IMG/VR virus record: IMGVR_UViG_3300037761_000203
Coordinates: 1-46,280 of that record
From: a virus
Lineage: Duplodnaviria; Caudoviricetes
Direction: 5' to 3' (one strand)
Length of the DNA stretch: 46,280 nt
Part shown: positions 19,832 to 32,612 of the stretch, piece after piece
Layout of the letters: each line of letters starts with the position of its first letter
Position numbering within the stretch: the stretch's first letter is position 1
The notes under the pieces: model-generated
What the model was told of the DNA's origin: nothing
What the model saw: the letters and a program-made list of their open reading frames with translations, nothing else
Databases searched by the model: none
Translations under genes and position numbers: made by a program

Positions 19832-20404
19832 TCAGTCCTGGACGTCCCCGAACGTGTCCACGATCTCCCCGGATACCCGGCACTCATAGCCGCCGTCCTG
19901 ATGCCGGGCCACCGCCGCGTGGTCGATCCGCTCGGCCAGGTGCACGGTCTCAGTCGCGCCCACCTCCACCCGCACTTCATCGGTGATCGTGTAGTCATCC
20001 TGGCCGAGCTGGTCGAAGGCTGCGGTCACCTCGACCACAATGCCGACGTTGCCCACGTTGGCCACGTCGATCGACGCCGCGAACTCGGACTGGTCCCCTT
20101 CGACGAACAGGAGCAGGTCGCAAGCGCCCTCGACGGTGCCGTCGGGGTTGGGGCCGGCCGGTGCTGGCGTGCCCTGCTCGGTGGGCTGGGTGACCGGGCT
20201 GGCGTCGTTCAGCGGGTCGCCGTCCGTGTCGGTGCCGGCGATGCCGACCACGGCGAGGATCCCGCCGCCGATGCAGCACAGGGCAACCAGGGTGATGCTG
20301 ATCGCGATCAGCCAGGTGGGGGCGGTGAGCTTGTGCTTGGGTGCCTTGACCGGCGCCGGCGGCTGGCTGTGGGCCGGCTGCGGGTCGGGCTGCTGGTAGG
20401 TCAT
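19832..20404 (-). CDS. Membrane-anchored acidic exported protein (possible superinfection-exclusion type)
   Basis: Pro/Gln-rich N-terminus, TM with LCC.GG, Ig-like ectodomain with a Cys pair. Confidence 0.7.
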   Translation of the reverse strand: MTYQQPDPQPAHSQPPAPVKAPKHKLTAPTWLIAISITLVALCCIGGGILAVVGIAGTDTDGDPLNDASPVTQPTEQGTPAPAGPNPDGTVEGACDLLLFVEGDQSEFAASIDVANVGNVGIVVEVTAAFDQLGQDDYTITDEVRVEVGATETVHLAERIDHAAVARHQDGGYECRVSGEIVDTFGDVQD

Positions 20405-20439
20405 GAGATCCTGCTCTCTGGTCGGGTGGCGGGTCTGTT

Positions 20440-20493
20440 CCGCCACTCGGCCCCCGCCGCGTGATGAGGCGGTTGGGGCCGGGCAGCGTCAGG
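20440..20493 (-). repeat. Intergenic hairpin repeat, copy 1
   Basis: Arms CCGCCACTCGGCCCCCGCC and GGGCCGGGCAGCGTCAGG are identical to copy 2; the loop differs. Confidence 0.9.
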
Positions 20494-20815
20494 CGGTACG
20501 GCGCCGCCACTGGACCAGCCGGCCGAGCCCCGGCGCGCGTAGCCCTCGGAAGCTCTCACTCCAGTGGATGGCCAGCTCCGGGACACAGTGACGGAGTCCC
20601 GGCCCGGCCTCGACGACCAGGTACAGCCGGCGGGGGCCGGGACGTACGGGGTGCCCGCCCGCGTCGACGAGGTCGGCACGGCCGCGTCGCCGGGGTAGCC
20701 GGATGTCGACGACCAGCCGGCGCGAGTTCCAGAACAGCGTCTGTATGCCCTCCCGCCAGATGAGGACGCTCGACCATCCGGCGTAACGTCCGGTCGCGGG
20801 TCGTAGTCGCTTCAT
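20489..20815 (-). CDS. Arg-rich hypothetical protein
   Basis: AAGGAG RBS; bracketed by the two repeats. Confidence 0.65.
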   Translation of the reverse strand: MKRLRPATGRYAGWSSVLIWREGIQTLFWNSRRLVVDIRLPRRRGRADLVDAGGHPVRPGPRRLYLVVEAGPGLRHCVPELAIHWSESFRGLRAPGLGRLVQWRRRTA

Positions 20816-20843
20816 GTCATCTCCTTCGGTTGGGCGGTCTGCC

Positions 20844-20895
20844 CCGCCACTCGGCCCCCGCCCGCCGGAGCGGGTGAGGGCCGGGCAGCGTCAGG
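20844..20895 (-). repeat. Intergenic hairpin repeat, copy 2
   Basis: Same 19-nt and 18-nt arms as copy 1. Confidence 0.9.
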
Positions 20896-21148
20896 GCCAT
20901 AGGACGGGTTCCTCCTGCTGTTCCTGGCGACGCCCCTCCCGGAGCATCTCCCGTACACCCTCCCAGTACGCGGCCAGCTCCCAGGCGGCGTAGTCCGGGA
21001 CGCTCCAGCCTGCCCGGACCGCCTCGGCCAGCTCGTCCTGCCACAGGTGCCAGTCGGCGCAGACACCTGTGTGCATGCTCGGCGGGTGGCGGATCGGCCG
21101 GCCCAGGTTGTCCAGGGCGCCGGACCCGCAGCGGCGTAGCCGGTTCAC
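20891..21148 (-). CDS. Hypothetical protein
   Basis: GTGA overlap with the upstream small gene. Confidence 0.6.
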   Translation of the reverse strand: MNRLRRCGSGALDNLGRPIRHPPSMHTGVCADWHLWQDELAEAVRAGWSVPDYAAWELAAYWEGVREMLREGRRQEQQEEPVLWP

Positions 21149-21306
21149 TCCGACCCGCCCGCCACGAACACGGAGCGGCCGTCGAGCTCGAAGACGCCGG
21201 CCTCGCCGGCGGCCAGTGACTGGGCGTGCTCGGCGGCGGTGGCCGGGCGGATCGGCTCGCCGGTGCGGTAGTCGGTCAGGGTGCCGTAGTCGGTGGTCTC
21301 GCTCAT
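21145..21306 (-). CDS. 53-aa hypothetical protein (MSETTDYGTLTDYRTGEPIRPAT...)
   Basis: AAGGAG RBS; ORF read by hand. Confidence 0.7.
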   Translation of the reverse strand: MSETTDYGTLTDYRTGEPIRPATAAEHAQSLAAGEAGVFELDGRSVFVAGGSE

Positions 21307-21388
21307 GGTGGTCTCCTTCGGTGGTGGTGTCTGCCAGTCTGGCAGGCCAGTGGTGGGTCAGCGGTTCCGTTCGGGTGCTGGTGTGTGG

Positions 21389-21522
21389 ACCTGCACCCAC
21401 ATGGCCGGCCCGCCGGAGGGCTCTCCTCGCCAGTGGCTTCGGCATGCGCCCCACCCGCCTGAGCCTGGAGGGGCAGCCACCACCGGTTCACGGGACGGCG
21501 AGCCGGCCATGTGGATGCAAGT
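21389..21522 (-). ncRNA. Structured RNA domain C (24-27 bp closing stem, multibranch head)
   Basis: 21392-21415 pairs with 21496-21519; the two mismatches are G-U pairs on the minus strand. Confidence 0.6.
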
Positions 21523-21529
21523 TCTGCGT

Positions 21530-21678
21530 GTACCTGATGCCACGGGGGGAGCCGCCGGGGAAGCCTCTCTGGGGCGGTCCCGAGCCGTGGCTGCGGGTGC
21601 CGGTCGAGAGCCCGACCGCCTGGGCGGCCAGTGATCGTCGCAACCGGTCCGGTCGGCTCCCCTCGTGGCATCAGGTGC
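21530..21678 (-). ncRNA. Structured RNA domain B (23-bp closing stem, multibranch head)
   Basis: 21532-21554 pairs with 21654-21676 with one mismatch; several internal hairpins. Confidence 0.6.
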
Positions 21679-21757
21679 CTTCTTGTCCCTGGCGGTTCTA
21701 ACCGCGGTGGCCGCTGTTCTCGTTTGGCCTGGGACCCTCTCTTGTCTTATGTGTATA

Positions 21758-21786
21758 ACTGTACACCCAGAATGGGGGGGTGTCAA
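21758..21786 (-). promoter_or_regulatory. Near-consensus sigma70/HrdB promoter TTGACA-N17-TACAGT
   Basis: Read directly from the minus strand; points into the structured region and the leftward operon. Confidence 0.85.
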
Positions 21787-21857
21787 GCCCTCCGCTCAAC
21801 CTTTCGGGTAGTTCTGTCTACCCAAAAGGTGCAGCCTTGTGGGTGTACACTAGAAGC

Positions 21858-22037
21858 ATGGCGGAGAGCGCGAAATCTCGTGGTCGTCCATCTGTTGGAC
21901 CGAAGCGGTATCTGCGGATGGGTGATCTCTGGGATGAAGCTGTGGAACTTGCCAGACAACGCCGCGAGAGCATGAGCGAACTGGTGCGCCGGGCCATCGA
22001 GCGCGAGGTTCGCCGGCTGCGACGGGGTGCGAAATGA
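21858..22037 (+). CDS. Ribbon-helix-helix (CopG/Arc-like) regulator
   Basis: RGRP...R.LRM..LW..A...A......MSELVRRAI; TACACT -10 six nt before the ATG, so probably leaderless. Confidence 0.8.
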   Translation: MAESAKSRGRPSVGPKRYLRMGDLWDEAVELARQRRESMSELVRRAIEREVRRLRRGAK

Positions 22038-22591
22038 CCGTGGAGATACCACTCACCCGCGGCTTCGTCGCGCTAGTGGACGACGGGGATGCTGCGCGGG
22101 TCATGCCGTACCGCTGGATTGCGCTGAAAGGTCCTCGGACCTGGTATGCCTGGGCTCAGATACCTAGTCGTGGTCGATCTGGGGCGATCCTGATGCACTC
22201 GCTTCTGACCGGCTGGCCACGGGTCGATCATGCCAACGGTGACGGTCTGGACAACCGACGCCAGAATCTACGCCAAGCAACGCAACAGCAAAACATGCGT
22301 AACAGTCGCAAGTACAGGGGAGGCAGTTCCCGGTACAAGGGAGTTTGCTGGAAGATACGCAATCAGCGTTGGCTGGCCCAGATCTACGTGTCCGAACAAG
22401 ATGCTAGCGGGGTGCCGACTAAGCGCAAGCTTCACCTGGGTACCTTCACTGACCAGGAGACCGCCGCCCGGGCGTACGACGCTGCGGCGCGGGAGCACTT
22501 CGGCGAGTTTGCCTGTCTGAACTTCCCGCTGCCGGGCGAGCGTGGAGCGTTGGGGCCGGGGAAGGGCGCCAACTGGCGGAAGGGGGACTGA
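22034..22591 (+). CDS. HNH-AP2 homing endonuclease
   Basis: IPLT.G..ALVDD.D, VDH.NGDGLDNRR.NLR.AT..QN, S.YKGV, HLG.F.....AARAYD.AA...FGEFA.LNFP. Confidence 0.95.
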   Translation: MTVEIPLTRGFVALVDDGDAARVMPYRWIALKGPRTWYAWAQIPSRGRSGAILMHSLLTGWPRVDHANGDGLDNRRQNLRQATQQQNMRNSRKYRGGSSRYKGVCWKIRNQRWLAQIYVSEQDASGVPTKRKLHLGTFTDQETAARAYDAAAREHFGEFACLNFPLPGERGALGPGKGANWRKGD

Positions 22592-31200: not shown

Positions 31201-32199
31201 GGACCGCCGGCCACGGGGTAGACGTCCATGCCGCCAAAGGCATGCTCGCCGGTGGGACGGTCGAGCTGACCCTCATGTGCGCCATGCCCGCCGAGACGCT
31301 GGGCCAGCGGATCGACCGGGCCACGGCCGAGCTGGCCGAGCTCACCCGGCAGGTCGCCGCCGCCAACGGAACGGAGGCCCACCATGGCTGAGCTGTACGT
31401 CAAGGTAGACGGCCAGATGGTCCCGCTGGTCGACTGCGACTGGGTGTTCTCCCGCACATGCGGCCACCCGTTCGGCCTGCTCGTAGCCCAGCTGCGCGGA
31501 TCCTCGCGCGACTCGTACGCCACCCAGGAGCAGGCGTGGCGGGAACTCTACCCGCGCTCACGCGACCGCCAGGCGGCCCAGCGGCGCGGGGTGACCGCCC
31601 GGCTGGCCGTCCACACCACGCTCGACGACGAGTTCTGGCAGCACATGAAGGAAGGCTGCCAGTGCGCGACCCGAGCCGACTCCAAGGAGACCGGCCATGG
31701 CTGAGTTTCTGGGCGCGACCGCCCGGGCCATCCGGACCGTGGCCCGCCGGGTGTTCATGAACGCGGGCCGGGCCGTGATCATCGACAGCCGTGGCGGGCT
31801 GACCCTACGCATCGTGCGACTCCCCGGCTGGTACTGGCGCCGGTGGCTGTGGATCGTCCGGCGCCCCGGCGGCTGGGAGATCGAGGGCCGGTCGTGGACC
31901 CGCCGGACCGCCACCATCCACGGCTCCACCTGCCGGGCGCTGATGCTCGCCGCCCGCAGCCCGGTCGCCACCCGACGCAGCCAGGACGACCTCGAAGGGT
32001 GGCGGTGATGGCTGAGCCGATCTACGCCAAGGCCGATGAGCAGCGCTGCGGCGAACCACACCCAGATGGTGGGACGCCGTGCCAGCGTCGCTCCTACCAC
32101 ACAGCACCTCACGCCCGGCGGGCGTGGGGCGGGTCCGACGTCTGGGCGCCGGAACCTCCAGACCTACGCCCAGGTCGCCCGCCAGATCGGGGGCAGTGA
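28290..32199 (+). other. Run of short coupled early hypothetical genes (28290-28523, 28520-28699, 28696-29025, 29027-29215, 29212-29454, 29451-29747, 29744-29860, 29857-30075, 30072-30497, 30494-30823, 30820-31038, 31035-31391, 31384-31704, 31697-32008, 32008-32199)
   Basis: Continuous chain of ATGA/GTGA overlaps and RBSs; no families recognised. Confidence 0.55.
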
Positions 32200-32612
32200 T
32201 GCGCCCGGCTGACCGGCACCCGCCCCACACCCTCGCCCCCGGCCCCGGCTGGGCAGACGAGGCCGCCTGCCGGGACGAGGACCCGGAGATCTTCTTCCCG
32301 GTCGCCCTTGACACCGGCGCCACCAGCAGCCACCCCGACGTGCTACCCGCCGTGTGGATCTGCCAGAAGTGCCCGGTCACCGCCGCCTGCCTCAAATGGG
32401 CGATGGACCACGGCGAACGGCACGGCGTCTGGGGTGCCCGCACCCCGTCCGAACGTGACGGCCGGCGGCTATCCATCTGCCACCAGTGCTCCGGCTGGTA
32501 CACCGCCAGAGATGTGAGAAGCCGATTCTGCTCGGTGGTCTGCCATCAGAGCGCCCGGCTGGCCGAAGCGCGGCGGCACAGGTTGGCCGCCGCAGAGAGG
32601 ACACCGTCATGA
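32199..32612 (+). CDS. whiB: WhiB-family transcription factor with extra C-terminal zinc finger
   Basis: W...AAC...DPE.FFP, C..CPV...CL..A, GVWG..T..ER; then CHQC...FCS..C. Confidence 0.92.
   Translation: MRPADRHPPHTLAPGPGWADEAACRDEDPEIFFPVALDTGATSSHPDVLPAVWICQKCPVTAACLKWAMDHGERHGVWGARTPSERDGRRLSICHQCSGWYTARDVRSRFCSVVCHQSARLAEARRHRLAAAERTPS

Follow-up and report, generated by a model that had tools for sequence, protein, structure and literature searches.

An uncatalogued, modular cassette of structured non-coding RNA in a temperate tailed phage and its relatives

The locus, its promoter and its operon

The window, meaning the whole stretch of 46,280 nucleotides analyzed, is an entire 46-kb virus record that is estimated to be 92% complete as a genome and has a G+C content of 70%. 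The record encodes tail, tape-measure, endolysin-like, integrase, and repressor genes, and its source is a temperate tailed phage. The host is likely a member of the Micromonosporaceae, judging from the endolysin-like protein, whose named relatives are mostly from Plantactinospora, Micromonospora, Polymorphospora, and Phytohabitans; the relatives of the integrase are only 27–51% identical, too distant to name a host.

The RNA region studied here heads a small leftward operon, with the lysis module on one side and the integration module on the other. The first gene of this operon (21145–21306, minus strand) has a ribosome-binding site and encodes a 53-aa protein of unassigned function, which has relatives in six viral contigs, none in GTDB genomes, and no family above cut-off in Pfam or PHROGs. 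The remaining genes (19832–21148, minus strand) encode proteins of 85, 108, and 190 aa, the last membrane-anchored, again with no assigned function. Among relatives, the gene content of the operon varies and consists mostly of small genes without an assigned function; comparison of 57 downstream proteins with Pfam and of 55 with PHROGs gave no match to any known anti-defence family. A G+C-rich hairpin element immediately precedes two gene starts of this operon, at 20826–20862 (minus strand) and at 20422–20458; the two copies are 86% identical (z −3.3 and −3.5), and the core motif is found in many related loci, where it may be a processing site or a stabilizer. Elsewhere in the window, a 23-bp inverted repeat around about 75 nt (32117–32237, z −2.7) coincides with the beginning of a gene judged WhiB-like on inspection by eye.

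Transcription of the region would be driven by a sigma-70-type promoter, TTGACA-N17-TACAGT (21758–21786, minus strand), with a predicted start near 21750. A sequence-only reading of this DNA had picked out this site as the best-consensus promoter; it is indeed present, and it is the sole promoter-like site within 15–28 kb, the range scanned. The match by itself is not significant, because shuffles give 0.8. Candidates of the form TTG-N16-18-TAnnnT occupy the equivalent position in 18 of 21 loci. A conserved motif (21796–21808, minus strand) immediately precedes the −35 box, and a related one is found in 16 of 23 loci; it is short, partly palindromic in some relatives, and occurs whatever the repressor type.

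An operator-like 10-mer is present in two copies that are inverted relative to each other: the first (21840–21849) lies just before the start of a small divergent gene, and the second (21760–21769) overlaps the promoter spacer and the −10 box. The divergent gene (21858–22037, plus strand) encodes a ribbon-helix-helix (RHH), Arc-like protein (PHROG 6506, E 7e-4; Pfam RHH_1, E 0.012, below cut-off), which aligns with six RHH-like proteins encoded at the same place in relatives. From these sequence features, the RHH protein is likely the repressor of the cassette promoter, and the 10-mers may be the sites that it binds. Among loci, the divergent small DNA-binding gene varies together with the operator repeat. 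Of 21 loci, 12 have a repeat of their own that overlaps the promoter; the divergent gene encodes an RHH-like protein in 7 of the 21 and belongs to phrog_597 in two (L018 and L026), and five loci have no evident small DNA-binding gene immediately next to the promoter. Repression of the promoter would follow an early burst of activity, as acr/aca operons suggest by analogy. Directly after the RHH gene lies a gene for an HNH + AP2 endonuclease (22034–22591), and only some relatives have one there.

Structure of the leader and the two domains

On the minus strand, the region from 21350 to 21790 is predicted to fold at −235.9 kcal/mol (z −7.3), a value reached by none of 100 shuffles. Three structured parts follow one another: a three-way junction in the leader (21685–21735, minus strand), which is the constant module of the cassette, and two clamped domains. 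The first domain, domain B or cartridge 1 (21532–21676, minus strand; family II), has a closing helix of 26 pairs and a nested multi-helix head (z −7.4); the second, domain C or cartridge 2 (21389–21522, minus strand; family I), has a closing helix of 27 pairs and a bulged hairpin (z −7.2). For each domain, none of 200 shuffles folded as well, and the two are the top short-range inverted repeats of 19.5–23.5 kb. The small junction and the two domains with long closing stems, all first noticed by eye, thus exist. Most domains fold slightly better when read from the opposite strand, so that it is the promoter, and not folding, that sets the strand.

The leader junction covaries: among 11 sequences, all three of its helices contain pairs in which both partners change, and the count would be higher but for three variants that are misaligned by one column. 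The leader model R2 recovered held-out variants (L250, E 2e-21; L252, E 4e-17). This leader, type 1, is found in 19 of 23 loci, and a second, unrelated leader, type 2, in the other four.

In domain C, predicted pairings link the apical loop to each of the two strands that flank it. One of these pseudoknots (21419–21465, minus strand) joins GGCUC (21465–21461) to GAGCC (21423–21419), a pairing within the domain that the earlier reading had proposed; it forms 5–6 bp in all 10 family I members and is invariant, and so shows no covariation. The other (21454–21494, minus strand) joins CCCGU (21494–21490) to GCGGG (21458–21454); as CCCGU/RCGGG it also forms 5–6 bp in 10 of 10 members, with one U-A/U-G change. 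No compensatory changes were found in either pairing among these 10 sequences. Together, the pairings suggest that domain C is a double pseudoknot, a structure that is predicted only, because both are nearly invariant.

Domain B is organized differently. The sequence-only reading had seen the two heads as tandem homologues built on one plan, with kissing loops both within and between domains; the tandem homology and the kissing between domains were rejected, and of the proposed pairings only that within C stands. The alignment of the two heads has a z of 1.0, and 91 of 500 shuffles did as well; scored with a model of domain C's family, B reaches 15 bits and C 120. In B, the UGGC of the supposed UGGC…AGCCAC stem pairs instead with GUCG in a separate hairpin (p about 1.0), and reads UGAC in L023. 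The CUCU/AGAG segments of B form an ordinary nested helix in the minimum-energy fold instead of kissing loops, and this part of the fold is soft, with a pair probability of only 0.39. The cross-domain complement amounts to 8 bp, a length reached by 53 of 200 shuffles, and pairs of domains that do not co-occur reach 8–10. Finally, the domains are different folds, and C's family lacks a B-type partner in 8 of 11 loci.

The proposal of an undescribed non-coding RNA family thus survives as regards a non-coding RNA, which is supported by covariation, by conservation far above that of the flanks, and by the absence of any match in Rfam, and fails as regards a single family of tandem homologues. The same reading had not recognized the RNA, and it matches no catalogued one: profile searches with Rfam 15 at the gathering threshold gave no match in the window (best E 4.2 on 21250–21900) and none on the cassettes of five relatives (best in-cassette match E 5.2), and ARAGORN found no tRNA-like RNA. 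Likenesses to the motifs of HDV-like, twister, pistol, cobalamin, and T-box RNAs were considered by eye and dropped. Among the papers listed, the literature searches gave no description of this cassette family. Overall, the region is very probably a functional non-coding RNA.

Cartridge types and their exchange among relatives

Relatives were found by searches with the downstream gene and the endolysin and with sequence patterns, two for the leader and one for a head. The cassette is present in 22 other contigs of uncultured phages, 20 viral and 2 metagenomic, whose dataset numbers cluster, so that they may represent few habitats. A search through 48 loci added one new member, and further scans for relatives returned known contigs or chance matches only. 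Among the matches listed, contigs of two other DNA runs hold pieces of the element with a few changes. No cassette was detected by BLAST in 401 host-family genomes, which gave only GC-rich matches of up to about 75 nt, or by model R1 in sets of 5 and 150 genomes, a search that scored only 150 or 21 candidates per genome and therefore carries little weight. The leader pattern had four matches in GTDB genomes, judged by inspection to be chance and lacking clamped domains, and two of its four matches in metagenomes were that same chance sequence. In GenBank phages and plasmids, blastn gave nothing except one 49-nt match (E 0.4), and a complete, more distant phage (G406) did not match the window's cassette.

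Every cassette consists of the promoter region, the leader, and then one or two clamped domains. Seven cartridge types, with at least four folds, are distinguished; their labels, A–G, are separate from the domain labels B and C, types A and B being the window's two domains. The 23 loci comprise three with A and B (the window, L023, and L226), eight with C and D, one with D and a half-deleted C, five with E and F, three with E alone, and three with G alone. In the half-deleted case (L058:14870–14940), a deletion has removed the leader together with the first half of type C, and the type D cartridge is intact. The closing helices have 21–29 pairs, nearly all Watson–Crick, in 35 of 35 cases measured, and most start with CCUG and end with CAGG, whatever the head.

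The cartridges fall into four families. In family I (domain C and type E), the heads are homologous (z 5.4, 0 of 500 shuffles) and carry a conserved internal CGAAG element. Changes on both sides affect 10 of 36 pairs, four of them in head helices; only 0–1 of 500 column shuffles match this, and slid controls are about 40% paired. This covariation comes mostly from one split between two sub-groups, of two and eight sequences. In family II (domain B and the type C cartridges), the closing helix is common to all, with compensatory changes, and the homology of the heads is visible by eye only (z 0–2.2). In family III (types F and G; z 6.5), a loop pairs with a strand over 7 bp, and this pairing shows two compensatory changes. 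Family IV (type D) is multi-armed, and its loop complementarity is lost in three of eight copies: in L018, L058, and L059, a 6-nt hairpin loop is inverted relative to the five other copies, so that the complementarity to the second loop is gone. DNA-level repair between inverted arms can yield near-perfect helices and compensatory changes, and for this reason covariation in the closing helices weighs less than that in the heads.

In the A and B loci, the domains are 94–99% identical to those of the window (95–99% for domain B in L023 and L226), whereas the promoter and spacers are 29–83% identical. The first downstream gene differs among loci that have the same cartridge. Sequence comparison shows that cartridges are exchanged independently of the neighboring genes and repressors. 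The cartridges are also dispensable for the layout of promoter and operator, because three related loci that have no clamped domains (L069, L074, and L090) retain a similar promoter together with operator-like repeats. In one of these (L074:13500–13700, minus strand), about 200 apparently non-coding bases lie behind the promoter and may hold another RNA. Two further observations concern the surroundings of cartridges: in L035 and L037, some 350 nt beyond the cartridge, another conserved non-coding stretch, of about 90 nt, separates small genes, and in a provirus (L068:17572–17709) an unrelated-looking domain with a 22-bp closing helix and a 95-nt head, not matched by model R1, lies beside a terminator-like hairpin.

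Possible functions and comparison with known systems

The cassette is a real, uncatalogued, modular phage non-coding RNA, for which a decoy function in trans is proposed. It is hypothesized that the repressor-flanked promoter would give an early burst of a transcript made of the leader junction and two unrelated folded modules, that host RNase III would cut the modules out at the 26–27-bp closing helices, and that the released cartridges would act in trans as stable decoys tying up host proteins, such as defence or gene-expression factors. RNase III is encoded in five of five host-family genomes. A helix of about 22 bp suffices for this enzyme, so that the predicted closing helices, with 21–29 pairs, would be ample as substrate. 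Decoys acting in trans are preferred because unrelated heads share one kind of clamp, because heads are freely exchanged, and because the cassette sits among variable accessory genes. Against this model, none of the downstream proteins scanned matched an anti-defence family that would point to a target, and both domains failed the test for repeat mimicry described below. As a whole chain, in which transcription, timing, cleavage, action in trans, and targets are all conjectural, it is plausible but falls somewhat short of being probable. The broader proposal, that the cassette is a locus for RNA effectors of at least four unrelated new folds, each released by RNase III and neutralizing a different host defence or regulatory protein, is more tentative still, and we consider it rather doubtful.

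An alternative, unlikely but still to be taken seriously, is that the cassette acts in cis, as a leader that stabilizes the operon mRNA, shields it from termination or 5′ exonuclease, or sets expression via RNase III. The early leaders of T7 and lambda use RNase III sites in this way. The cassette is in every case placed behind the promoter and ahead of the first gene, its leader junction is nearly constant, and additional hairpins precede other genes of the operon, all of which would fit such a role. However, a hairpin would suffice for it, whereas the heads are 60–130 nt long, take four folds, are 94–99% conserved, and have predicted pseudoknots; in addition, the number of cartridges, one or two, is unrelated to the downstream gene. 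A gene-specific switch is further argued against by the closing helix, which seals each head off from the ribosome-binding site, and by the variability of the first downstream gene.

Compact pseudoknotted folds are typical of ribozymes and riboswitch aptamers, and the modules might therefore be clamped self-cleaving ribozymes or small-molecule aptamers, for instance sponges for immune signals. The predicted double pseudoknot of family I, with its internal CGAAG, and the covarying loop-to-strand pairing of family III are the features that point this way. This explanation is improbable: no Rfam ribozyme or riboswitch appeared even at E 4 on the region, or on the cassettes of the five relatives, the strand order judged by eye is unlike the HDV-like or twister topologies, and there is no expression platform.

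Slightly less probable again is an RNA anti-CRISPR array, in which the modules would be elaborated mimics of host repeats that sequester Cas6 or Cas7. The comparison used real repeats read from the CRISPR arrays of host-family genomes, 31 of 121 of which have Cas6e. The heads of type E match both arms of type I-E repeats with 14.1 bits (0–2 of 150 shuffles, in four of four tested), and one host repeat, taken from an RT-Cas1 locus, agrees with the leader of the window in 20 of the first 25 letters (0 of 400 shuffles). However, the window's own domains behave like shuffles on the profile of 13 I-E repeats (77 and 141 of 150 as good), although C is homologous to E, and against 27 distinct repeats 58 and 5 of 100 shuffles were as good; furthermore, 6 of 616 ordinary window tiles also reach 14.1 bits. 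Of 14 type-1 leaders, two reach 0 of 400, three lie at 2–4%, and nine are at chance, and the leader variants retain the fold and drop the likeness to the repeat. In the host arrays, the leader profile and model detected nothing, with best E-values of 6.7 and 0.66 near arrays. When 809 host-family spacers were compared with the phage loci, the one match was partial, with 26 of 28 letters agreeing in a spacer of 37 nt. Tested in these ways, the likeness to CRISPR repeats is weak, a lead rather than support. In the host loci L177–L180 (genomes G138, G184, G201, and G202), CRISPR arrays flank genes for a reverse transcriptase, cas1, and a cas2-like protein and adjoin E1 (ThiF) and E2 genes, with a SAVED-domain match in three loci, no Cas effector was present among the 13 proteins scanned, and the repeat recurs in 5 of 401 genomes.

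Multimerization by loop pairing between molecules, as in the prohead RNA of phi29, had also been suggested, and nothing was found in its support. The prohead RNA has a long terminal helix and a head with complementary segments, features that the cartridges share, and pairing inside a single molecule would require the loop of domain C to fold back across some 15 bp. Nevertheless, such a scaffold is very improbable, given the chance-level cross-domain complement, the lack of a match to the prohead RNA in Rfam, the interchange of unrelated heads in closely related phages, the loss of complementarity in three of eight type D copies, and a site in an accessory region far from the packaging genes. 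For the same reasons the cassette was not assigned to the phi29 RNA; it also differs in belonging to a temperate tailed phage with a tape-measure gene.

Equally improbable is that the region encodes a 122-aa protein, or acts as DNA through its inverted repeats, the RNA fold being incidental. A frame of 122 codons (21671–21303, minus strand) does cross the region, which qualifies the earlier statement that it held no credible open reading frame; it is open in all three A and B loci (124 and 112 codons in the two closest relatives), indels between the domains have lengths divisible by three, and the stop of the window's frame overlaps the start of the next gene. That statement holds in that the frame bears no sign of coding selection and is probably non-coding: its GC3 is 0.67, against 0.96 for the next gene, 9 of 14 and 4 of 6 substitutions are non-synonymous and spread across codon positions, its product has no match in Pfam or PHROGs, homologues of type E meet a stop within 4–42 codons in all three frames, and the short head helices covary.

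Among known systems, the adenovirus VA RNAs and the EBV EBERs are tandem, terminally paired viral decoy RNAs of about 160 nt. They serve as an analogy only, with no homology implied: they come from eukaryotic viruses and are separate transcripts. A retron or another RNA associated with a reverse transcriptase was set aside, since the record has no RVT_1 gene.

Bacterial Y RNAs of the YrlA type are likewise 110–150 nt long, have a terminal helix, are often found in pairs, and occur in actinophages (PMC4201824). Domain C contains one match to the YrlA motif GNCGAAN0-1G, which is absent from B and short enough to be due to chance; it is internal, whereas the motif of YrlA lies near the 5′ end (PMC4201824). 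YrlA was set aside, as there is no T-arm or D-arm motif, no tRNA-like call, and no Rfam match. In addition, no Ro60 (TROVE) gene, needed within 4 kb for YrlA, was found in the 92%-complete record, in a search for which 2 of 14 controls were positive.

RNA anti-CRISPRs, namely Racr (PMC10651486), Cracr arrays (10.1101/2024.10.29.618823), and viral sgRNAs (10.64898/2026.06.01.729453), are phage non-coding RNAs that lie behind a promoter, are sometimes multiplexed, and act as decoys; the cassette shares the first two features and perhaps the third. Phage RNA decoys of Cas proteins often sit near anti-CRISPR genes (PMC10651486). A promoter within 250 bp upstream, used to define Racr (PMC10651486), is present here as well; no cas or acr gene was recognized near the cassette. 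In contrast to the window's domains, RNA anti-CRISPRs mimic CRISPR repeats or guides, as did all the phage RNA decoys found in the literature searched. If the proposed function is correct, the cassette would be an RNA counterpart of a variable anti-defence gene island that goes beyond CRISPR mimicry, and the swapping of whole folds, like that of accessory genes, would make structured RNA a general and modular phage weapon. The cassettes would also add four folds that are new, among them two for which pseudoknots are predicted.

The nearest known system is the Pleft leader RNA of the Cluster A mycobacteriophages L5, D29, and StarStuff (PMC5712189). The repressed early promoter Pleft of L5 is reported to yield a 500-nt RNA that is very abundant and is processed to 100–400 nt, and the Pleft region is toxic to the host (PMC5712189). 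Like the cassette, Pleft RNA belongs to a temperate actinophage, spans about 450–500 nt without a credible gene, and lies between a leftward promoter controlled by a repressor, putatively so here, and small unassigned genes (PMC5712189). The differences are also clear. The L5 leader has no sequence match to four cassette profiles, and its longest long-range helix has 14 pairs, compared with 21–29 in the cassettes. Control in L5 is by an immunity repressor with stoperators, whereas the cassette has a dedicated divergent small gene, and the exchange of whole modules seen in cassettes is not mentioned for Pleft in the sections available (PMC5712189). With cartridges of only 110–180 nt and clear boundaries, each step of the proposed mechanism is directly testable. 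For the abundant early RNAs of actinophages that lack an explanation, the Pleft transcript of L5 among them, the cassette can serve as a model that is structured and can be deleted.
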